The notes under the pieces: generated by a model
What the model saw: only the letters and a program-made list of their open reading frames with translations
Told to the model about the DNA's origin: nothing
Databases searched by the model: none
Position numbers and translations under genes: made by a program
Source: an uncultured archaeon
GTDB lineage: Archaea > Iainarchaeota > Iainarchaeia > Iainarchaeales > CSSED10-239
Reading direction: 5' to 3'
Assembly: GCA_964468895.1 (NCBI GenBank)
Contig: CAYXWT010000025.1
Span: forward strand, 1-11,122
Length of the DNA stretch: 11,122 nt
In this document: positions 846-10,678 of the stretch, in pieces
Layout of the letters: each line of letters begins with the position of its first letter
Numbering within the stretch: position 1 is the stretch's first letter

Positions 846-1395
846 ATGAAAAATGTAATATTTTTTTATAGATAATGGATATTTAAAACTAATTATTAAA
901 GAATTTAAATATATTAAAATTGATATAAATAAATTATCTTTTGCTCTTTGTAAAAAATTAGATTTATGGTGTGATTCTATTTATCTTTATGATGCACCAC
1001 CATATCAAGATCCTAATTCTAAAAGTGATAGAAAAAGAAAAAGAAATTATGATAAGTTTATATCTAAACTTAAAGATAATAAAATTATTGTTAGAGAAGG
1101 TAGATGTCAAAAAATAAAAAATGAATTTCATCAAAAAGGTGTAGATACTTTATTAACTATGGATTTATTATCAGTCCCTGAAGATAAAAATATAAATAAT
1201 ATTGTTTTAGTTGCTTGTGATACTGATTTTGTTCCTGTTTTGAATAAAGTTAGGCAGAAGGGTCGTAAGGTTTATTTATTTCATTATAATGATTATAAAA
1301 GAAAATCTAAATTTTCTATGTCTAATTATTTAGAAACTGCTTGTGATAAAACTATTTTAATTAAAAGAGAAGATTTAGAAAATTCTAGATTATAA
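846..1395 (+). pseudogene. NYN/LabA-like (DUF88, PIN-like RNase) gene with a frameshift in a T7 run
   Basis: ATG 846 gives MKNVIFF and then hits a stop. Removing one T from T7 (861-867) joins it to frame 1 (868-1395): IDNGYLKLIIKEF...GRCQKIKNEFHQKGVDTLLTMDLLSVPEDKNINNIVLVACDTDFVPVLNKVRQKGRKVYLF. The FIDxxY N-terminus, KGVD and the D.DF.P...R..G..V motifs are typical of NYN domains. The ORF track shows only the last 78 aa. Confidence 0.75.
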
Positions 1396-1639: not shown

Positions 1640-2102
1640 TGATAAATATGTTGTGTTTCAACAGGAAGATTAAATGAACAGGTTAAAAGAAATAAATCTA
1701 GATTCCCTAAAGATTTTGTTTTTCAATTAACCAAATCAGAAAAAGAGGTTATCGCAAATTGCGATAACCTTAACGATATTAAATATTCTCCAAAATCGTC
1801 TTTTGTATTTACTGAACAAGATGTAGCTATGCTTTCTGGGATACTAAATAGTAAAAAAGCAATAGAAGTGAATGTTCAAATTATGAGTGCTTTTGTAGCA
1901 ATGAGAAGATTTATATCTTCAAATACTTCTATTTCTAATAGATTAGAACATATTGAAAAAAAACTATAGATTATGACTCTAATTTTAAAAAAACATATCA
2001 TATAGGTGCTTCTCTTAAAGATCTTGGTAAAAAATGGTTTGCCTTTTCTAAACTTAACTTAACTTAGATATTAATAATATTTTAGATAAGTTAGATAAAT
2101 AA
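1640..2102 (+). pseudogene. ORF6N-family gene that is 5'-truncated and internally deleted
   Basis: Frame from 1670: LNEQVKRNKSRFPKDFVFQLTKSEKEVIANCDNLNDIKYSPKSSFVFTEQDVAMLSGILNSKKAIEVNVQIMSAFVAMRRFISSNTSISNRLEHIEKKL*. After the YDSNF region it jumps straight to ...YHIGASLKDLGKKWFAFSKLNL...DKLDK and TAA 2100-2102. About 324 nt are missing relative to 2167..3054. Confidence 0.75.
1746..1770. repeat. Intragenic palindrome (25 nt, perfect)
   Basis: AGGTTATCGCAA-A-TTGCGATAACCT, with 12-bp arms. It encodes VIANCDN. Confidence 0.9.
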
Positions 2103-2166: not shown

Positions 2167-3054
2167 ATGAGTAAAGATAAATTAAAAGTTGTTTCTTTAG
2201 ATAATGTTATTATCAGAAAAAAGATTTATACAATAAGAAATAAACAGGTTATGTTAGACCGAGATTTGGCTAGATTGTATGGTGTATCTACTAAAAGGTT
2301 AAATGAGCAAGTTAAAAGAAATATAGGTAGATTTCCTAAAGATTTTATGTTTCATATATATAAAAAAGAAAAAGATGAACTGGTCGCAATTTGCGACCAC
2401 CTCACATCTATTAAATTTGCATCTAGTTTGCCTTATGTTTTTACTGAACAAGGGGTAGCCATGCTTTCAGGCATATTAAATAGTAAGAAAGCAATAGATA
2501 TAAATATTCAAATTATGAGAGCTTTTGTATCTATGAAAAGATTTATTTCTTCAAATATTTCTATTTCTAATAGGTTAGAGTGTGTTGAACAAAAGCAAAT
2601 TAAATATGATTCTAATTTCAAAGAAATATTTGCAATTATTGATAGTAAAGAAAATAAATTAAAAGATCAAGGTATATTTTTTAATGGAGAAATATTTGAT
2701 TCTTATAAGTTTGTTGTTGATTTACTAAAAACTGCTAAAACCAGTATTATTTTAATAGATAATTATATTGATGAGTCTATTTTAACTTTATTTACAAAAA
2801 TAAATAAAAATATAAAAATTAAAATCTATACAAATATAAATAATAAAGTTAAATTAGATGTTAACAAATATAACTTTCAATATAATAATCTTGATGTTAT
2901 TGACTTTAAAGAGTCTCATGATAGATTTCTTATTATTGATAATAAAGAAACATATCATATAGGAGCTTCTCTTAAAGATCTAGGTAAAAAGTGGTTTGCT
3001 TTTTCTAAACTTAACCTAGATATTAATAATATTTTAGATAAGTTAGATAAATAA
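2167..3054 (+). CDS. ORF6N (KilA-N-like) domain protein with a C-terminal PLD-like (H-x-R) domain. This is the only full-length copy in the window.
   Basis: 295-aa ORF. The N-terminal part reads IYTIRNKQVMLDRDLARLYGVSTKRLNEQVKRNIGRFPKDFMF...PYVFTEQGVAMLSGILNSKKAIDINIQIMRAFV, which are classic ORF6N motifs. The C-terminal part reads SIILIDNYIDESILTL...SHDRFLIIDNKETYHIGASLKDLGKKWFAF. Confidence 0.8.
   Translation: MSKDKLKVVSLDNVIIRKKIYTIRNKQVMLDRDLARLYGVSTKRLNEQVKRNIGRFPKDFMFHIYKKEKDELVAICDHLTSIKFASSLPYVFTEQGVAMLSGILNSKKAIDINIQIMRAFVSMKRFISSNISISNRLECVEQKQIKYDSNFKEIFAIIDSKENKLKDQGIFFNGEIFDSYKFVVDLLKTAKTSIILIDNYIDESILTLFTKINKNIKIKIYTNINNKVKLDVNKYNFQYNNLDVIDFKESHDRFLIIDNKETYHIGASLKDLGKKWFAFSKLNLDINNILDKLDK
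2381..2399. repeat. Intragenic palindrome
   Basis: TGGTCGCAA-T-TTGCGACCA, with 9-bp perfect arms. It encodes VAICDH. Confidence 0.9.
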
Positions 3055-3057
3055 TTG

Positions 3058-3086
3058 TTTTGCTACGGTCAATCACCCTTTAGAAA
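3058..3086 (+). repeat. Junction element copy J3
   Basis: TTTTGCTACGGTCAATCACCCTTTAGAAA. It starts 3 nt after stop 3052-3054. TTTAG at 3079 is 40 nt upstream of ATG 3119. Confidence 0.85.
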
Positions 3087-3118: not shown

Positions 3119-3480
3119 ATGAGTAAAGATAAATTAAAAGTAGTTTCTTTAGATAATGTTATTATCGGAAAAAAGATTTATACAATAAGAAATAAACAAG
3201 TTATGTTAGATAGAGATCTAGCATTTCTTTATAAAATTGAAAATAGAATTTTAAAACAAACAGTTAGAAGAAATCTAAAAAGGTTCCCTAAAGATTTTAT
3301 GTTTGAGTTAACTAATATAGAGATGGACTTTATGGTATCACAAAATGTGATACCTTCAAAAAAATATTTTGGCGGATCTAAACCATATGTTTTTACTAAA
3401 TAAGGCGTAGCTATGATTTTAGGTATCTTAAATTATAAAATTATTGTAAAGATAAATCTTCAAATTATGAGCTTTAGGAT
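3119..3480 (+). pseudogene. ORF6N-family gene with a premature stop and no C-terminal domain
   Basis: The first 30 codons are nearly identical to 2167..3054. The ORF stops at FTK* (3401-3403), where paralogs have FTEQGV. Homology continues out of ORF (GVAMILGILNYKIIVKINLQIMSF) to about 3480 and is then lost. Confidence 0.65.
3334..3354. repeat. Intragenic palindrome
   Basis: GGTATCACA-AAA-TGTGATACC, with 9-bp perfect arms. It encodes VSQNVIP. Confidence 0.9.
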
Positions 3481-3603: not shown

Positions 3604-3632
3604 TTTTGCTACGGCCAATTACTCTTTAGAAA
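3604..3632 (+). repeat. Junction element copy J4
   Basis: TTTTGCTACGGCCAATTACTCTTTAGAAA. TTTAG at 3625 is 40 nt upstream of ATG 3665, although the spacer sequence differs from J2/J3. Confidence 0.85.
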
Positions 3633-3664: not shown

Positions 3665-4415
3665 ATGGTTTCTAATAATTTCTCTGAATTACCTGTACAA
3701 ATAAATAATATAAAAAATAAAATATATATATTAAGAAATCAAGAAATAATAGTGGATAGAGATTTGGCCAAGTTTTATTGTGTAGATACAAGAATATTAA
3801 ATCAAGTTGTAAAACGTAATATTTCTAGATTTCCAAAAAGATTCCTGTTTCAATTGACTACTATAGAATTTAATATTTGGAAATCACAAATTGTGATGTC
3901 CAATAAAGAAAAAATGGGTCTTAGAAAAAATCCTTTTGCTTTTACTGAACAAGGTGTATCTATGCTTTCAGGTCTTTTAAATAGTAAAACTGCTATTGTG
4001 GTAAGTATCCAAATAATAGATGCTTTTGTATCTATGAGAAGATTTATATCTTCAAATACTTCTATTTCTAATAGATTAGAACATATAGAATAAAAAACTA
4101 CTGAATATGATTCTAATAGACAATTACATTGATGAGTCTATTTTAACTTTATTTACAAAGATAAATAAAAATATCAAAGTTAAAATTTATACAAATATAA
4201 ATAATAAAGTTAAATTAGATGTTAACAAATATAACTTTCAATATAATAATCTTGGTGTTGTTGATTTTAAGGTGTCTTATGATAGATTTCTTATTATTGA
4301 TAGTAAAGAAATATATCATATAGGAGCTTCTCTTAAAGATCTAGGTAAAAAGTGGTTTGCCTTTTCTAAACTTAACCTAGATATTGATAATATTTTAGAT
4401 AAGTTAGATAAATAA
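3665..4415 (+). pseudogene. ORF6N + PLD-like gene disrupted by a nonsense codon and a 140-nt deletion (track ORFs 3665..4093 and 4107..4415)
   Basis: TAA 4091-4093 sits where the intact copy has CAA. ...tatgattctaat|agacaattacattgatgag joins sequence equivalent to 2616 and 2757 of the intact copy. That is a 140-nt deletion (not a multiple of 3) between TAAT microhomologies. The downstream part is about 90% identical to the C-terminal domain of 2167..3054. Confidence 0.8.
3879..3901. repeat. Intragenic palindrome
   Basis: GGAAATCACAA-A-TTGTGATGTCC, with 11-bp arms and one mismatch. It encodes KSQIVMS. Confidence 0.85.
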
Positions 4416-4418
4416 TGG

Positions 4419-4447
4419 TTTTGCTACGGCCAGTTACTCCTTAGAAA
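4419..4447 (+). repeat. Junction element copy J5
   Basis: TTTTGCTACGGCCAGTTACTCCTTAGAAA. It starts 3 nt after stop 4413-4415 and lies about 80 nt upstream of the Bro-N gene. Confidence 0.8.
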
Positions 4448-4527: not shown

Positions 4528-5373
4528 ATGTTATTAAAAGAAAAATCATTAGTTGTATTTCAAAATTCAAAAATTAAAAGAGCTTGGTTTAAAGATGAGT
4601 GGTATTATTCTTTGGTGGATGTTATTATGGTTTTAACAGAAAGTGTTAATCCTACTGATTATTTAAAAAAACTTAGAAAAAGAGATATTGAACTTAATAA
4701 TTACATAGGGATAAATTGTCCCTATGTGAAAATGTTAACTAAAACATATAAGGAGAGAACTTTTATTGCTGGAAATAATACAAACATTTTTCGTCTTATT
4801 CAATCAGTTTCAAGTAAAAAAGCTGAACCTTTTAAATTATGGTTAGCAAAAGTTGGAAAAGAAAGAATAGATGAAATAGAAAATCCAGAACTTGCTCAGA
4901 AAAGAATGAAAGAACTTTATAAAATGAAAGGATATTCTGAATCTTGGATTGAAAAAAGAGTTAGAGGTATTGTTATTAGAGATGAATTAACTGATGAGTG
5001 GAAAAAAAGAGATGTTCATACCAATAAAGAATTTTCTATACTAACTGCAGAAATTAGTAAAGAAACTTTTGGTATGATTCCAAGTGAGTTTAAAAATTTT
5101 AAAAGTTTAAAAAATGAAAACTTAAGAGATCATATGGATGATTTAGAACTAATATTTTCTATGCTTGGAGAAAAAGTTACAAATGAAATTACTGTTGCTA
5201 AAAATTCAAAAGGTTTTGATGAATGTGAAGTTTCTGTAAAGCAAGGAGGTCAGGTTGCAGGTAATGCTAGAAAAGATGCAGAAGACAAAATTGGAAGACC
5301 TATTATTACTAAGAATAATTTTAGAAAAATTTCTGAAAAAGATAAAACAATTTTATTAAAATCTAAAAAATAA
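4528..5373 (+). CDS. Bro-N domain protein of the DinD-like / phage-antirepressor-like family (copy A)
   Basis: 281-aa ORF with the RBS AAGAGGTG 5 nt before the ATG. The N-terminus reads VFQNSKIKRAWFKDEWYYSLVDVIMVLT (Bro-N). The C-terminal part carries SKKAEPFKLWLAKVGKERIDEIENPELAQKRMKELYKMKGYSESWIEKRVRGIVIRDELTDEW, a conserved family signature. Confidence 0.8.
   Translation: MLLKEKSLVVFQNSKIKRAWFKDEWYYSLVDVIMVLTESVNPTDYLKKLRKRDIELNNYIGINCPYVKMLTKTYKERTFIAGNNTNIFRLIQSVSSKKAEPFKLWLAKVGKERIDEIENPELAQKRMKELYKMKGYSESWIEKRVRGIVIRDELTDEWKKRDVHTNKEFSILTAEISKETFGMIPSEFKNFKSLKNENLRDHMDDLELIFSMLGEKVTNEITVAKNSKGFDECEVSVKQGGQVAGNARKDAEDKIGRPIITKNNFRKISEKDKTILLKSKK
4703..4727. repeat. Intragenic palindrome (Bro-N copy A)
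   Basis: ACATAGGGA-TAAATTG-TCCCTATGT, with 9-bp perfect arms. It encodes IGINCPYV. Confidence 0.85.
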
Positions 5374-5402
5374 GATTTATAAAAAGTAAATACTATTTAT
5401 AA

Positions 5403-6111
5403 TATTTATCTAAAAAACGGTTTGAGACATAAGTTAGTTAATAAAAAAGATTATATATCTAATCCTAAATCAGATGGTTATAGATGTATTCATTTAGTTT
5501 ATAGATTTGTTAGTGATAAAGGTAAACAAAACTATAATGGTTTACTTGTTGAAATTCAAATTAGATCTAAATTACAACATCTTTGGGCAACTGCAGTTGA
5601 AACAGTTGATTTTTTTACAAATCAAGCTATAAAATCAAATCAAGGTGACAAAGATTGGAAAGACTTTTTTAAATTAGTTAGTTCTGCATTTGCAAAACTA
5701 GAAAAATCTTCTACTATTGTAGAAGATACTCCTAATAATGAAAAAGAATTATGTTTGTGTATTAAAGAAAAAGAAGTTAAGTTAAATGCAATAAAGAATA
5801 TGAAATTATGGACTAAATCTATTAAATCTTTTGATGATTTAAAAAATAAAAAGCAAGATACAGCATTTTTTCTTTTAGAATTAGATGCAGGTTTAAATAG
5901 ATTGAATATATCTGCATATTCTAAAGCTGAAGAAGCTAAAGCTTTAGCTGATTATGCTTATTCTGAACAGAAAATTTATGGTCGTACTGAATGTGATGTT
6001 GTTTTAGTAGGTGTAGATAATTTAGTAGATTTAAAAGAAGCATATCCTAATTATTTTTTAGATACAGCTAAATTTATTAAACGTTTAGAGCGTATACTTA
6101 AAAAATATTAA
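5403..6111 (+). pseudogene. 5'-truncated RelA/SpoT-domain gene copy lacking the promoter and about 124 N-terminal codons
   Basis: 5403-6134 equals 9903-10634 at an offset of exactly 4500 nt, with a single mismatch (5430 T vs 9930 C). There is no ATG, and the track ORF 5422..6111 begins at an internal TTG (Leu in the full copy). The DIAGCRCVV motif region is missing. Confidence 0.85.
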
Positions 6112-6134
6112 TTAAAACTACTAATAATCATCAT
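5403..6134 (+). repeat. Near-identical direct repeat, copy A (732 nt)
   Basis: Line-by-line comparison with 9903-10634 shows 1 mismatch in 732 nt. Confidence 0.95.
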
Positions 6135-6148
6135 TTTTTTCTTTATTT

Positions 6149-6177
6149 TTTTGCTATGGCTACTTACCATTTAGTAA
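6149..6177 (+). repeat. Junction element copy J6
   Basis: TTTTGCTATGGCTACTTACCATTTAGTAA, preceded by oligo-T tracts downstream of the RelA/SpoT stop. TTTAG at 6170 is 39 nt upstream of the remnant ATG 6209. Confidence 0.75.
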
Positions 6178-6208
6178 TTAACACCGTTTTTAGATATCTA
6201 TTTTATAT

Positions 6209-6495
6209 ATGTATTAAAATAATTTAAAGGTTCTACTTTTAGAAACAGATATTATTAAGAAAAAGATTTATACAATAAGATAACAATTCATAATGTTAGA
6301 TAGAAATATTGCAAAATTATATAATGTTTTAACAGGGAGATTAAACAAATAAGTTAAAAGGAATATAAAAAGATTTCCTAAAGACTTTATGTTTTAATTA
6401 ACTGAATGTGAGAAAAAAGAGGTTGTCGCAATTTGCGATAACCCTAATAGTGTTGTAGTTTTACTTAAATTGTTATTTGTATTTGCAGAATAAGA
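6209..6495 (+). pseudogene. Heavily decayed ORF6N gene (several in-frame stops, truncated after the FTEQ region)
   Basis: IIKKKIYTIR*QFIMLDRNIAKLYNVLTGRLNK*VKRNIKRFPKDFMF*LTECEKKEVVAICDNPNSV...FVFAE*. This is clear ORF6N homology interrupted by stops, and the palindrome is retained. Confidence 0.75.
6421..6443. repeat. Intragenic palindrome (in the decayed ORF6N)
   Basis: GGTTGTCGCAA-T-TTGCGATAACC, with 11-bp arms and one G/T apposition. Confidence 0.85.
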
Positions 6496-6521
6496 TTTAA
6501 TATAAATGTAAGCTAATATAA

Positions 6522-6800
6522 TTAATCATATTTTTTAGTATAAATTTTATTTCTATGGTCAAAATATCTAAAAATAACTAAATTTATATTAGGTTTTATT
6601 TCAAAAATTAAAACAAATTTTTCAGTAATATGTACTCTCTTATATTTTTGAAGTGGTCTTCTAAGGTTTTTATAATGTTCGATATATTTAGAATTTTTAA
6701 TTTCTTCAATTTTGTGAATCAATATGGTTGCTAGTGTTTTGTCTTTTTGGGATAACTTTTTAATAATGTTATCTAGTTTAGGATGTATCTCATAATCCAT
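6522..6800 (-). CDS. RelE/ParE-superfamily type II toxin (mRNA interferase-like)
   Basis: 92-aa ORF with LSQKDKTLATILIHKIEEIKNS...YKNLRRPLQKYKRVHITEKFVLIFEIKPNINLVIFRYFDHRNKIY. This follows the typical RelE/StbE layout (K..L.g.l..y.R.+i...+rliy.i......v.i....hR...Y). Its start lies 1 nt after the stop of the upstream small ORF. Confidence 0.8.
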   Translation of the reverse strand: MDYEIHPKLDNIIKKLSQKDKTLATILIHKIEEIKNSKYIEHYKNLRRPLQKYKRVHITEKFVLIFEIKPNINLVIFRYFDHRNKIYTKKYD

Positions 6801-6801
6801 C

Positions 6802-7053
6802 TTACTCTAATTTATATCTTTTTTTAAGATCACCTAATTTATTAAATTTAAATCCAGAACCAATTTTATATTTTTTATCACCATTTTGTATCTTTTTTAT
6901 AAATTTTGGTTTTAATTTAGGTTCTAATTCATTTTTTGCATAATACCTTACAACCACTGATATTGTTTCAGCTTTGTTTTTTAGATTATTCTTTGCTTTT
7001 ATAATATTTAGAGTTTGGTTTATATCTGTAGGTAAATCTAATAACGCTTTCAT
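6802..7053 (-). CDS. Cognate antitoxin, archaeal DUF2683-like / RHH-like
   Basis: MKALLDLPTDINQTLNIIKAKNNLKNKAETISVVVRYYAKNELEPKLKPKFIKKIQ...LGDLKKRY. I prefer ATG 7053 over the track's TTG 7065, because GGTGAT (7058-7063) lies 4 nt upstream of that ATG. The family call is from memory of LN.VKAKYGLKNKSEAI...LEPELKPEF antitoxins. Confidence 0.65.
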   Translation of the reverse strand: MKALLDLPTDINQTLNIIKAKNNLKNKAETISVVVRYYAKNELEPKLKPKFIKKIQNGDKKYKIGSGFKFNKLGDLKKRYKLE

Positions 7054-7093
7054 AATAATCACCAAGCATCCCCAAAAAAAAGTTTTTAGGTGT

Positions 7094-7107
7094 TATTTAA
7101 ATATAAA
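7094..7107 (-). promoter_or_regulatory. Candidate archaeal TATA box for the toxin-antitoxin operon
   Basis: The minus strand reads AAAAG-TTTATATTTAAATA about 54 nt upstream of ATG 7053, followed by a leader containing GGTGAT. An AACCTA-N9-TAGGTT inverted repeat (7131-7151) lies just upstream. Confidence 0.3.
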
Positions 7108-7411
7108 CTTTTTTTTCTTTGTATGTTCTAAACCTAAATAGATTCTAGGTTCAGTATATATTATAAATAGAAATGTTAATAAATGTTAATATTAGTTAGG
7201 TTTATTTTTAAGCAGTTTCTAAAAAATAAAAAGAGTAATAAAAGTCTATTTACATAAATATGCTATTAGAGGATATATATTTTATTTAGAAGTTGTTGGT
7301 AATTATATATTTATTAAACCAAAATTTACTTAGAAGATTTTATTAATAAATTGTTCTTGCATTTACAGTTCTAATTATGGTTTTATAGGTTGAAATAAGA
7401 TGTTTATTTTA

Positions 7412-7440
7412 TTTTGCTAAGGCCATCTACCCTTTCGAAA
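7412..7440 (+). repeat. Junction element copy J7
   Basis: TTTTGCTAAGGCCATCTACCCTTTCGAAA. Its end lies 44 nt upstream of ATG 7484. Confidence 0.7.
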
Positions 7441-7483
7441 AGGATATCTAAATCAAATTCTATAGTATATCTGATGATTATTT

Positions 7484-8333
7484 ATGATTAGTAAAAAATC
7501 AATTAAATTATTTGAAAATAAAAAAAGTACGAGTTTCTTGGGATGAAGATAAAGAAGAATGGTATTTTTTTATAGTTGATGTAATAAAAATATTAACAGG
7601 GATTGTTTATTCTAATGCTTATTGGAGAAAATTAAAGCAAAGGTTAAAAGAAGAAGGAAATCAAACCGTGACAAATTGTAACACTTTGAAAATGCGTTCT
7701 CTTAATGGAAAAATGAGACTTACTGATACAGGAACTACAGAACAAATATTAAGATTAATTCAATCAATTCCTTCAAAAAAAGTTGAACCTTTCAAAATTT
7801 GGTTAGCAAAAGTTGGAAATGAAAGAATTAATGAAATGTATGCCCCTGAACTTGCAATTGAACGAGCTATGAATACTTATTTACAAAAAGGATATTCAAA
7901 AGATTGGATAAATCAAAGATTAAAAACTATTGAAGTAAGAAAAGAATTAACAGATGAGTGGGTAAGAGTAGGAATAGAAAAAAGAACATATTTTGCAATA
8001 CTTACAAATGAAATTATAAAAGCATGGTCTGGTAAGTCTATTAAAGATTATAAAAAATTAAAAAATCTTAAAAAAGAAAATCTTAGAGATAATATGAGTA
8101 ATCTTGAGCTTATTTTAAATATGCTTACTGAGGCAACTACCAAAGAAATCTCTGAAAAAGAAGATCCTTCTAATTTTAGTGAAAGTAAAGAGATTGCTAT
8201 AGAAGGAGGAACAACTGTAAAAGTTGCAAAGGATAGAATTGAAAAAAGATTAGGTAAAACAATAGTTACCTCTAAAAATGCAAAAGAAATTTGTTTTAAA
8301 GATAAGAAAAGATTATTAAAACCCAAAAAATAA
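7484..8333 (+). pseudogene. Bro-N/DinD-like gene (copy C) with a +1 frameshift in an A7 run. It could alternatively be an N-terminally shortened CDS from TTG 7512.
   Basis: ATG 7484 gives MISKKSIKLFENKK, the canonical Bro-N start. The frame then shifts within A7 (7520-7526). Removing one A continues as VRVSWDEDKEEWYFFIVDVIKILT...SKKVEPFKIWLAKVGNERINEMYAPELAIERAMNTYLQKGYSKDWINQRLKTIEVRKELTDEW. Confidence 0.7.
7668..7684. repeat. Intragenic imperfect palindrome (Bro-N copy C)
   Basis: GTG-ACAA-A-TTGT-(AA)-CAC. It encodes VTNCNT. This is the weakest member of the set. Confidence 0.5.
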
Positions 8334-8444: not shown

Positions 8445-9302
8445 ATGTTATTAAAAGAAAAATCATTAGTTGTATTTCAAAATTCAAAAATTAGAAGAAC
8501 TTGGTTTAATAATGAATGGTGGTTTGTAATAAAAGACATAATTTCTGTACTTACAGATTCTAAAGATCCTTCAGATTATTTAAAGAAATTAAGAAAAAGA
8601 GATCCTTATTTACAAAAGATATTTAAAGGGGGGGGACAATTTGTCCCCCCCCTTGGTTTAGAGTTTGATACTGTTGGTGGTGTACAAATGATTCAATGTT
8701 GGAATACATCAGGTCTGTTTAGACTTACTCAATCTATATCTAGTAAAAAAGCTGAACCTTTCAAAAGATGGCTTGCTAAGGTTGGTTATGAAAGAATAAA
8801 AGAAATAGAAAATCCTGAACTTGCTCAAAAGAGAATGAAAGAACTTTATAAACTAAAAGGATATTCAGAATCTTGGATTGAAAAAAGAGTTAGAGGTATT
8901 ATTATTAGAGATGAATTAACCGATGAATGGAAAGAAAGAGATGTTAATACTAATAAAGAATATTCTATACTAACAGCAGAAATAAGTAAAGAAACTTTTG
9001 GTATGACTCCTAGTGAGTTTAAAGATTTTAAAAATCTAAAAAATGAAAACTTAAGAGATCATATGAATGATTTAGAACTAATATTTTCTATGCTTGGAGA
9101 AAAAGTTACAAATGAAATTACTATTGCTAAAAATTCAAAAGGTTTTGATGAATGTGAAGTTTCTGCAAAACAAGGTGGTCAAGTTGCAGGTAATGCCAGA
9201 AAAGATGCAGAAGACAAAATTGGTAAACCTATTATTACTAAAGATAATTTCAAAAAAATTTCTGAAAAAGATAAAAAAAGTTTGTTAAAATCTAAAAAAT
9301 AA
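8445..9302 (+). CDS. Bro-N/DinD-like protein (copy B)
   Basis: 285-aa ORF with the RBS AAGAGGTG. By eye it is about 90% identical to copy A over the C-terminal 190 aa and about 70% over the N-terminal 50 aa. The central patch is replaced (FKGGGQFVPPLGLEFDTVGGVQMIQCWNTSGLF). Confidence 0.8.
   Translation: MLLKEKSLVVFQNSKIRRTWFNNEWWFVIKDIISVLTDSKDPSDYLKKLRKRDPYLQKIFKGGGQFVPPLGLEFDTVGGVQMIQCWNTSGLFRLTQSISSKKAEPFKRWLAKVGYERIKEIENPELAQKRMKELYKLKGYSESWIEKRVRGIIIRDELTDEWKERDVNTNKEYSILTAEISKETFGMTPSEFKDFKNLKNENLRDHMNDLELIFSMLGEKVTNEITIAKNSKGFDECEVSAKQGGQVAGNARKDAEDKIGKPIITKDNFKKISEKDKKSLLKSKK
8626..8654. repeat. G8/C8 hairpin-forming palindrome inside Bro-N copy B
   Basis: AA-GGGGGGGG-ACA-ATT-TGT-CCCCCCCC-TT, with G8 at 8628-8635 and C8 at 8645-8652. 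The stem is 13 bp and the loop 3 nt. It encodes KGGGQFVPPL. Confidence 0.95.
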
Positions 9303-9531
9303 GATTTATAAAAAGTAAATATAGTTTATAATAAATTTGAAATTGTTTTTTAATTTTATGCGCAGTTTTGTGTTTTTTGAAAATGCAATTGCTATTTTAA
9401 TTTAGGTAGTATTCTATAGTGCTTATTTTAGTGATTGTTTTGACATAATTGTTTTTTTCAGTTTCTGCGCAAAACAACGTTTTTTTGAAATACACATTAG
9501 TTTTAAAACCATTTTGTTTAATAAATATATT

Positions 9532-10611
9532 ATGAAATATATAAACCCTAAACTATATTCTAAATCTAAAACTAATAAGGCTGCTGAACATCTTTGTCAT
9601 TTTACTGGTAATTATAAAGATATTTCTAAAACTGAAAGCAATTATTTAAAAATTATGGATAATTGGAGAAGTGCTCACAATTATCCTTTATCTATATTTA
9701 TAAAAAGATTAAAAAGAATAACTAAAGTTGCAGATTCTAAAAGTATTTGTAGTCAAAGACTTAAAAGAATGCCTTCTATTATTAAAAAGTTGAATAGATC
9801 TTATGTTGGTAATGAGCCTACTATGAGATATACTCAAATGCAAGATATTGCTGGATGTAGGTGTGTTGTTTCTACTTTAAAAAAAGTAAATACTGTATAT
9901 GATATTTATCTAAAAAACGGTTTGAGACACAAGTTAGTTAATAAAAAAGATTATATATCTAATCCTAAATCAGATGGTTATAGATGTATTCATTTAGTTT
10001 ATAGATTTGTTAGTGATAAAGGTAAACAAAACTATAATGGTTTACTTGTTGAAATTCAAATTAGATCTAAATTACAACATCTTTGGGCAACTGCAGTTGA
10101 AACAGTTGATTTTTTTACAAATCAAGCTATAAAATCAAATCAAGGTGACAAAGATTGGAAAGACTTTTTTAAATTAGTTAGTTCTGCATTTGCAAAACTA
10201 GAAAAATCTTCTACTATTGTAGAAGATACTCCTAATAATGAAAAAGAATTATGTTTGTGTATTAAAGAAAAAGAAGTTAAGTTAAATGCAATAAAGAATA
10301 TGAAATTATGGACTAAATCTATTAAATCTTTTGATGATTTAAAAAATAAAAAGCAAGATACAGCATTTTTTCTTTTAGAATTAGATGCAGGTTTAAATAG
10401 ATTGAATATATCTGCATATTCTAAAGCTGAAGAAGCTAAAGCTTTAGCTGATTATGCTTATTCTGAACAGAAAATTTATGGTCGTACTGAATGTGATGTT
10501 GTTTTAGTAGGTGTAGATAATTTAGTAGATTTAAAAGAAGCATATCCTAATTATTTTTTAGATACAGCTAAATTTATTAAACGTTTAGAGCGTATACTTA
10601 AAAAATATTAA
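9532..10611 (+). CDS. Stand-alone RelA/SpoT-domain nucleotide pyrophosphokinase (small alarmone synthetase / toxSAS-like) with an uncharacterised C-terminal extension of about 150 aa
   Basis: Synthetase motifs are present: YSKSKTNKAAEHL, MQDIAGCRCVV, SDGYRCIHLVYRF and LLVEIQIRSKLQHLWATAVE. There is no HD hydrolase, TGS or ACT region. I prefer ATG 9532 (MKYINPKLYSKSK) over the track's TTG 9514. Confidence 0.85.
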   Translation: MKYINPKLYSKSKTNKAAEHLCHFTGNYKDISKTESNYLKIMDNWRSAHNYPLSIFIKRLKRITKVADSKSICSQRLKRMPSIIKKLNRSYVGNEPTMRYTQMQDIAGCRCVVSTLKKVNTVYDIYLKNGLRHKLVNKKDYISNPKSDGYRCIHLVYRFVSDKGKQNYNGLLVEIQIRSKLQHLWATAVETVDFFTNQAIKSNQGDKDWKDFFKLVSSAFAKLEKSSTIVEDTPNNEKELCLCIKEKEVKLNAIKNMKLWTKSIKSFDDLKNKKQDTAFFLLELDAGLNRLNISAYSKAEEAKALADYAYSEQKIYGRTECDVVLVGVDNLVDLKEAYPNYFLDTAKFIKRLERILKKY

Positions 10612-10634
10612 TTAAAACTACTAATAATCATCAT
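9903..10634 (+). repeat. Near-identical direct repeat, copy B (732 nt)
   Basis: Partner of 5403-6134 at an offset of exactly 4500 nt. Confidence 0.95.
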
Positions 10635-10649
10635 CTTTTTCTTCATTTT

Positions 10650-10678
10650 TTTTGCTATGGCCACTTACCCTTTAGAAA
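10650..10678 (+). repeat. Junction element copy J8
   Basis: TTTTGCTATGGCCACTTACCCTTTAGAAA. TTTAG at 10671 is 40 nt upstream of ATG 10711. Confidence 0.85.

Follow-up and report, generated by a model that had tools for sequence, protein, structure and literature searches.

Among the bacterial immune proteins that directly recognise a viral structural protein, CapRel is one of the best understood. Its reference member, CapRelSJ46 from a Salmonella prophage (PDB 7ZTB and 9ERV; PMC9712102, PMC11578894), is encoded by a single gene without a partner. The antitoxin part of this protein consists of a sheet of three strands, two of which are separated by a helix, in a zinc-finger-like arrangement without cysteines; anchor helices and a helical extension at the C-terminus keep it in place (PMC9712102). 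In its catalytic part, R79 and R116 coordinate the adenine of the donor ATP and the Y155A exchange serves as a catalytically dead control, while substitutions of the YXXY tyrosines or of their interface lead to constitutive toxicity (PMC9712102). CapRel has been described in Cyanobacteria, Actinobacteria, Proteobacteria, Spirochetes, Bacteroidetes, Firmicutes and phages. RelA/SpoT homologues (RSH) in general have been described as rare in archaea (PMC3153485). Here, we describe a CapRel-type gene at 9532..10611 of a contig assigned to an uncultured archaeon of the Iainarchaeota (CAYXWT010000025.1, assembly GCA_964468895.1). The entire contig, 11,122 bases with a G+C content of 18-30% per 500-nt segment, was analysed and is referred to as the window. 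The 359-residue product is a divergent relative within the known, mechanistically solved CapRel family and does not represent a new mechanism. The new aspect is taxonomic: the gene belongs to a large CapRel clade of DPANN archaea and bacteria of the candidate phyla radiation (CPR) that bears signs of exchange between the two domains.

The open reading frame (ORF) is intact on the forward strand, from ATG 9532 to a stop codon at 10609-10611. An alternative in-frame TTG at 9514 would extend it by six codons to 365 residues; since 29 homologues align from ATG 9532 (M-K-x-I-N-P-K), the latter is the correct start. The synthetase motifs lie at residues 104-110 (QDIAGCR), 148-154 (DGYRCIH) and 174-190 (EIQIRSKLQHLWATAVE). 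RelA_SpoT is the sole Pfam match of the protein (residues 75-187, E 8.5e-20), with no hydrolase, TGS or ACT domain found by Pfam, and the last 155 residues matched no Pfam family when searched alone. A first-pass annotation, prepared from the letters of the DNA, had thus been right about the extent of the ORF, about the core motifs and C-terminal strings it quoted, all of which we located in the translation, and about the lack of hydrolase or regulatory domains. It had recognised no motif in the C-terminal extension, where the string AYPNYF turns out to be the YXXY autoinhibition motif of CapRel. Its central proposal, a CapRel-like fused toxin-antitoxin, is well supported by full-length homology, a profile built from C-terminal halves, the predicted fold and the catalytic and YXXY residues, all of which agree.

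In a phmmer search of the PDB, the match to CapRelSJ46 covers practically the whole protein, with residues 9-354 of the query aligned to 15-368 of 7ztb_A and likewise to 9erv_A (E 6.3e-41); the titles of these entries read 'Salmonella tRNA pyrophosphokinase CapRel' and 'Salmonella CapRel bound to Bas11 Gp54'. A profile of 30 clade members found CapRelSJ46 at E 4.6e-60. The next PDB matches, RelP and RelQ, were confined to the catalytic core, at E 1e-12 to 1e-14. CapRelSJ46 is by far the best sequence match in the PDB, and we take this as a proxy that places the protein, putatively, in the CapRel subfamily. The extension had been suggested to be the counterpart of CapRel's C-terminal domain, and it is to this region rather than to an unrelated known domain that it aligns: as a single query, the last 155 residues had their best PDB match in CapRelSJ46 213-368 (E 0.0028), and a profile of 15 C-terminal halves (154 residues) matched CapRelSJ46 215-371 (E 1.1e-11) with no other significant match in the PDB.

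Structure prediction led to the same family. An AlphaFold2 model computed from a 30-sequence alignment reached a mean predicted local distance difference test (pLDDT) score of 84.3 and a predicted template-modelling (pTM) score of 0.85. Past the catalytic domain, the model has four helices, strands at 277-285 and 290-297, a helix at 298-315, a strand at 321-327 and a short helix, and it ends in an unstructured turn (338-342) followed by a final helix (343-358); this predicted topology matches the published antitoxin fold of CapRel. When the model was compared with the PDB by Foldseek, the top hits were three CapRelSJ46 chains, 7ztb being the first, with E 5.5e-22 to 2.9e-21 and template-modelling (TM) scores of 0.65-0.69 over 360-364 aligned columns.

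Besides, the protein matches the PADLOC model PDC-S33 almost from end to end (residues 7-357 on model positions 6-343 of 349; E 1.1e-110, 368 bits), and the family is therefore already catalogued as a single-gene candidate for phage defence. PDC-S33 carries no description in its PADLOC library entry, and we found no mention of it in the literature; its link to CapRel and to the CapRel mechanism is made in the present analysis.

In 7ztb numbering, every residue named in the CapRelSJ46 paper (A77, R79, R116, Y155, L307, V338, L339, A341, A351, Y352 and Y355) carries the expected letter, so that the reference is the right protein and is numbered as published. The arginines that hold the ATP adenine, R79 and R116, correspond to R76 and R110, and the G-loop tyrosine Y155 to Y150. 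Y352 and Y355 of the YXXY motif become Y338 and Y341, embedded in an AYPNYF string that is identical in the two proteins, and three of the four residues that scaffold this motif are likewise identical (V338/L339 as V324/L325, A351 as A337). Two positions are substituted, A341 by G327 and A77 by S74. We then assessed conservation in 77 complete sequences taken from genome loci, i.e. 76 relatives plus the window protein. R76, D105, R110, Y150, H154, E174, Q176, R178, V324, L325, Y338 and Y341 are invariant in all 77, and the invariance of catalytic and autoinhibitory residues alike indicates that the gene is under selection for catalysis as well as for self-inhibition. The most variable blocks of the clade lie within residues 261-280. 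Thus, the window protein has the layout of domains, the fold and the complete set of residues by which the CapRel switch is defined. The coordinates of these parts and of the other features of the window are collected in Table 1.

Table 1. Position and basis of the CapRel-type gene, its parts and further features of the window.
Feature	Position	Strand	Basis or remark
Full-length CapRel-type fused toxin-antitoxin gene, 359 residues + stop	9532..10611	+	ORF, Pfam RelA_SpoT, PADLOC PDC-S33, CapRelSJ46 7ztb/9erv match, AlphaFold2/Foldseek
N-terminal helical region, residues 1-70, before the catalytic core	9532..9741	+	Model helices 11-22, 33-47, 50-67; aligned to CapRelSJ46 from residue 14/15
toxSYNTH catalytic domain, residues 71-205 (R76, D105, R110, G-loop Y150, E174/Q176/R178)	9742..10146	+	Pfam 75-187, residue mapping to CapRelSJ46, invariance
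Anchor helices, toxin to sensor, residues 206-272	10147..10347	+	Model helices 207-223, 237-251, 253-261, 267-272; C-terminal profile against CapRelSJ46 215-371
Pseudo-zinc-finger domain, residues 273-330, putative antitoxin and trigger sensor	10348..10521	+	Model: beta 277-285, beta 290-297, helix 298-315, beta 321-327
YXXY autoinhibition motif, Y338-P-N-Y341 within AYPNYF	10543..10554	+	Aligned to CapRelSJ46 Y352/Y355
C-terminal helical extension, residues 342-359	10555..10608	+	Model helix 343-358; counterpart of the CapRelSJ46 C-terminal anchor helix
AT-rich spacer of 229 nt, Bro-N gene to CapRel gene	9303..9531	+	Several T5-T7 runs; TTTTAAAA box 24-31 nt before the ATG
5'-truncated remnant, 229-residue ORF, TTG start	5422..6111	+	Protein 100% identical to residues 131-359 of the full gene
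Deletion junction of the remnant, 12-nt AAAAAGTAAATA	5381..5392	+	Sequence comparison, block alignment
ORF6N-type gene, intact, 295 residues (PDC-S05)	2167..3054		
ORF6N-type copy with premature TAA stop	3119..3403		
ORF6N-type copy split into two ORFs	3665..4093 + 4107..4415		
ORF6N-type copy running off the contig end	10711-11122		Continues past the window end in sister contig L088
Further decayed ORF6N-family segments, untranslatable remnants among decayed copies	6145-6444; 1644-2100		
Intergenic motif copies	413-437, 2107-2131, 3059-3083, 3605-3629, 4420-4444, 6150-6174, 7413-7437, 10651-10675	+	

Compared with CapRelSJ46, the window protein falls into the same length class (359 versus ~373 residues) and shows the N-terminal helices, the toxSYNTH domain, the anchor helices, the cysteine-less pseudo-zinc-finger domain (pZFD), the YXXY switch and the C-terminal helix in the same order. 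The differences lie in sequence and in setting. The clade consists mainly of DPANN archaea and CPR bacteria, is rarely found on viral contigs and has a less variable sensor domain. The split toxSAS systems of the CapRel and PhRel type (Mycobacterium CapRel:ATcapRel and gp29:gp30 of phage Phrann; PMC7229694) share with it the toxin family and a pZFD antitoxin fold at the ATP donor site, yet are made of two genes, in contrast to the one ORF without a small conserved neighbour described here. RelQ and RelP (5DEC, 6EWZ) are related through the RelA/SpoT core (~24-26% identity, TM ~0.75 when normalised to the shorter target), but lack both the N-terminal helical region and the C-terminal antitoxin/sensor half.

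By homology to CapRelSJ46 (PMC9712102, PMC11578894, PMC11782079), the protein would most likely act as follows. At rest, the C-terminal pZFD would fold back onto the N-terminal RelA/SpoT-type pyrophosphokinase and wedge Y338 and Y341 of the YXXY turn between R76 and R110, thereby blocking the ATP donor site. A viral protein that binds the surface formed by the pZFD and the anchor helices would stabilise an open state and keep the domain off the active site; the released enzyme would then move pyrophosphate from ATP onto the CCA at the 3' end of tRNAs and, with aminoacylation and translation halted, the infection would be aborted. As for the substrate, inhibition at the donor site through pZFD and YXXY goes along with tRNA-targeting toxSAS, whereas Tis1-like inhibition at the acceptor site is found with producers of (pp)pApp (PMC11782079); the presence of the donor-site YXXY therefore favours tRNA. 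Taken together, we consider it probable that the gene product is a CapRel-family toxin-antitoxin in one polypeptide, with virus-triggered pyrophosphorylation of tRNA. Within this reading, we are most certain of the membership in the family, less so of the substrate, and least of the antiviral role and its trigger.

Several observations weigh against this assignment. The identity to CapRelSJ46, the only characterised relative, is ~30%, which is why substrate and trigger are extrapolated. The model deviates from the open crystal form by a root-mean-square deviation of 10 Angstrom, a value that is only consistent with a different arrangement of the two halves. Mean pairwise identity across the 77 sequences is 58% in the pseudo-zinc-finger segment versus 73% in the catalytic domain; the putative sensor is thus fairly conserved, and the signature of an arms race is less obvious than in enterobacterial CapRels. 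Relatives were found on only three viral contigs, whereas bacterial CapRels are often prophage-borne. Lastly, some homologues adjoin ribosomal-protein genes rather than defence islands.

Four other explanations deserve to be set against the tRNA-targeting immune sensor, and two of them concern the product of the enzyme. The same fused architecture could release (pp)pApp or (p)ppGpp and act through ATP depletion or inhibition of purine synthesis, as do FaRel and Tas1. We regard this as unlikely: the catalytic core is indeed that of a generic RelA/SpoT nucleotidyltransferase, but pyrophosphorylation of tRNA has been demonstrated for what is by far the closest relative, the YXXY/pZFD pair is of the donor-site type tied to tRNA-targeting enzymes (PMC11782079) with no Tis1-like domain present, and the PDB matches listed at E <= 10 include no chain of Tas1, Tis1 or FaRel. 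Neither was an SAH/HD or other acceptor-site partner detected among the window ORFs scanned, nor is one conserved in related loci. That the gene encodes a housekeeping small alarmone synthetase (SAS), which serves (p)ppGpp stress signalling and carries a regulatory C-terminal tail, seems to us hardly credible, although database names such as '(p)ppGpp synthetase' and 'GTP pyrophosphokinase' would point in this direction. The protein does not group with these enzymes, scoring 62.2 bits against the 320-bit cut-off of the NCBIfam RelQ/YjbM equivalog model. Housekeeping SAS are single-domain proteins of ~210-230 residues, and here the C-terminal half is homologous to the antitoxin/sensor region of CapRel. 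Moreover, the gene is patchy in its distribution, single-copy and borne on islands instead of being part of a core genome, and RSH enzymes are reported to be rare in archaea (PMC3153485).

The remaining two explanations concern the genetic unit and its purpose. Bro-N is a family of DNA-binding domains common in viruses, and a Bro-N gene precedes both the full CapRel gene and its remnant copy in the window. The Bro-N protein encoded at 8445..9302 could accordingly be the sensor, regulator or antitoxin partner in a two-gene system, and the first-pass annotation had named it as the one linked gene. We examined this in the best 80 of 149 stretches encoding relatives, all from species-representative genomes. 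Relatives of the three Bro-N proteins of the window (tblastn) occurred in three of these 80 loci, twice ~4 kb downstream and once on the opposite strand, and in none of the 80 did one lie directly upstream of the CapRel relative; Bro-N was rejected as a partner for this reason. Nor was a gene of any other kind conserved beside the homologues: clustering the ORFs of >=70 residues within 4 kb gave no family that extended beyond 5 of the 80 loci, and since no neighbour is conserved across these loci, Bro-N is not a partner. Among small ORFs (30-130 residues within 500 nt), no cluster exceeded 6 of 81 loci, and the clusters found look like spurious frames in the conserved DNA of close relatives. 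SAH, Panacea, hydrolase or other antitoxin-like domains were not detected among the window ORFs scanned, in line with the earlier remark that no separate antitoxin was evident, and an Rfam scan of the window gave no match. Over their full length, the Bro-N proteins fit PDC-S13, a single-gene candidate of its own (E 3e-101 and 4e-116), and the ORF6N protein matches PDC-S05 (E 8e-107); these neighbours are therefore independent candidates on the same hypervariable island and not subunits of one system. In addition, the two Bro-N copies that precede the CapRel copies are 91% identical as opposed to 99.5% for the adjacent CapRel segments, which implies different histories of the two genes, and a 229-nt spacer with T-runs separates Bro-N from CapRel. 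A two-gene system is thus very improbable and largely refuted by the neighbourhood analysis. The CapRel gene instead appears to work alone, with toxin and antitoxin in one ORF, and the spacer likely constitutes its own promoter region, even if the box in it has no statistical support in DNA of 77% A+T. Finally, the gene might be a selfish module that stabilises a mobile island by addiction, activated by loss or degradation and not by virus sensing; the role of the C-terminal domain would then be limited to restraining the toxin. The patchy distribution and the identity of up to 86% between archaeal- and bacterial-labelled members would suit a mobile, self-propagating gene, the gene sits in a recombining and decaying cassette array, and its sensor domain is fairly conserved. 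Against this, we would argue that post-segregational killing is mechanistically awkward for one polypeptide without differential degradation, that in the fused CapRels characterised so far a phage protein binds directly and thereby switches on the toxin (PMC9712102), and that the family is a PADLOC defence candidate among other such candidates; on balance, addiction seems improbable to us.

Turning to the distribution of the CapRel-type protein, a word-indexed protein search returned 3,961 clusters at E <= 0.001. The best 120 of these are 55-62% identical over 95-100% of the query and have 337-436 residues (mostly 350-370), apart from P0001, a remnant of 229 residues. The source names of the best clusters include Nanoarchaeota, Woesearchaeota, Aenigmarchaeota, Nanohaloarchaea, Kuenenbacteria and Dojkabacteria. 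Going by record title, the best 80 of the 149 loci divide into 70 archaeal and 10 bacterial ones. The archaeal loci are mostly from DPANN, others including bins labelled Methanosarcinales, a Euryarchaeota bin and a Nitrososphaera; the bacterial loci come from Gracilibacteria, Dojkabacteria, Moranbacteria, Saccharibacteria, Patescibacteria, unnamed 'bacterium' bins and two bins labelled Gammaproteobacteria. Bacterial- and archaeal-labelled members reach the above 86% identity, and mean identities within and between the domains are similar (0.64, 0.62 and 0.60). Both figures indicate repeated transfer, with the proviso that bin labels may be wrong, and the sequences thus point to a CapRel gene that may have passed repeatedly between archaea and bacteria. 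The window protein itself stands apart within the clade, its identity to any representative being no higher than 62%. The label of an apparently archaeal island, given in the first-pass annotation, is plausible, in that the relatives, and not the window itself, suggest an archaeal origin of the contig.

We found nothing specific in the literature on CapRel or alarmone synthetases in archaea or DPANN. A 2026 survey reported DPANN archaea to be enriched in compact single-gene systems, several PADLOC candidates among them, and the content of the window fits this picture. It is tempting, if decidedly tentative, to see in this mainly archaeal branch the first tRNA-pyrophosphorylating immune sensor of the RelA/SpoT type in Archaea, tuned to a protein of the viruses of ultra-small cells and freely exchanged between DPANN and CPR because the universal CCA end of tRNA would work in both domains. 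The clade would extend the CapRel mechanism across a domain boundary and, with its one small gene, provides a way into the conflict of viruses and hosts where the latter mostly have neither CRISPR nor restriction systems. For PDC-S33, so far an unnamed PADLOC candidate, it supplies a mechanistic name and testable residues (Y150, Y338 and Y341).

The window contains a second, truncated copy of the gene. Four differences separate the DNA at 5398-6145 from that at 9898-10645 (99.5% identity), and the 571 bp that the remnant lacks comprise the spacer and the first ~121 codons. This deletion falls exactly between two AAAAAGTAAATA repeats of the full copy (9310-9321 and 9881-9892). The frame of the remnant is open from 5383, its first possible start being a TTG at 5422 that corresponds to residue 131. 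The first-pass annotation had viewed the gene as duplicated together with Bro-N; the supposed duplicate is this 5'-truncated remnant and not a second gene. Only the second half of RelA_SpoT is matched by Pfam. Since R76, D105 and R110 are absent, the remnant cannot bind ATP as the full enzyme does and is predicted to be catalytically dead, while the entire antitoxin/sensor half is kept. The truncated arrangement recurs at an identity of at least 99% in ENA ERZ27316756, JGI 3300031657 and 3300031645, and Logan SRR5581655, and is therefore not an assembly artefact of this contig. The CapRel copies are 100% identical in protein as against a 9% difference between the adjacent Bro-N copies, which suggests a recent gene conversion or duplication. 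One might speculate that the remnant is kept as a trans-acting antitoxin or decoy instead of being debris.

Beyond the CapRel copies, the contig is a tandem array of duplicated, decaying single-gene defence candidates, with three Bro-N genes and the ORF6N-type copies listed in Table 1. An NYN-domain gene (822-1395) is frameshifted by a 1-nt insertion at 861, which leaves a 78-residue ORF at 1159..1395, and is intact with 190 residues in the sister contig L083. On the minus strand, two small adjacent ORFs at 6522-7065 resemble a toxin-antitoxin pair. One of them has a sub-threshold, YafQ-like match (E 0.021), the other a DUF2683 match (E 1.5e-5; 25.6 bits versus a cut-off of 27); the label 'RelE TA' given to this neighbour in the first-pass annotation is thus plausible without being established.

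We further noticed an intergenic motif of ~30 nt (TTTGCTAnGGnnAnnnAnnnTTTmG) with eight copies on the plus strand, where ~0.01 would be expected by chance. The copies mark boundaries of gene units: the motif precedes the ATG by 36 nt in the ORF6N genes at 2167, 3119, 3665 and 10711 and is found 75-84 nt ahead of two Bro-N genes, and an imperfect hairpin is possible. It does not precede the CapRel gene and is absent from the 80 other CapRel loci; in a metagenome scan, it was seen only on contigs of a few related sample series. As a candidate attC site of an integron it was rejected, given that canonical R'/R'' cores (GTTRRRY/RYYYAAC) were not found by eye and that the contig has no integrase. 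As to its role, a promoter or operator shared by several genes and a site or hotspot of recombination both come into question.

Contigs related to the window document how the array is rearranged. A strain-level swap of cassettes is seen when the sister contig L093 (1-3543) is compared with window 5861-7909: in L093, the 3' end of CapRel is followed by a 308-residue ORF6N-type gene, which replaces the minus-strand small pair, and then by a Bro-N gene of the type found at 7512. The homology blocks of L093 set in at window positions 2102 and 7409; motif copies follow 4-5 nt later, at 2107 and 7413. L082, 99.6% identical to the window, diverges abruptly in the middle of the Bro-N gene at 8445..9302 (L082 9053-9287, window 9126 onward), by which Bro-N is cut to 249 residues. 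Past this break, L082 shows two small palindromes, TTTGAcGGCTacAGCCtTCAAA and GGCGGTTGCAACCACC, and then a different ORF; the break is either a recombination breakpoint or an assembly chimera. The same Bro-N gene carries a G8...C7 palindrome, GGGGGGGGACAATTTGTCCCCCCC, at 8628-8651, which is striking in DNA of 23% G+C and is located in a segment of Bro-N that aligns with the copy at 4528 only as short fragments.

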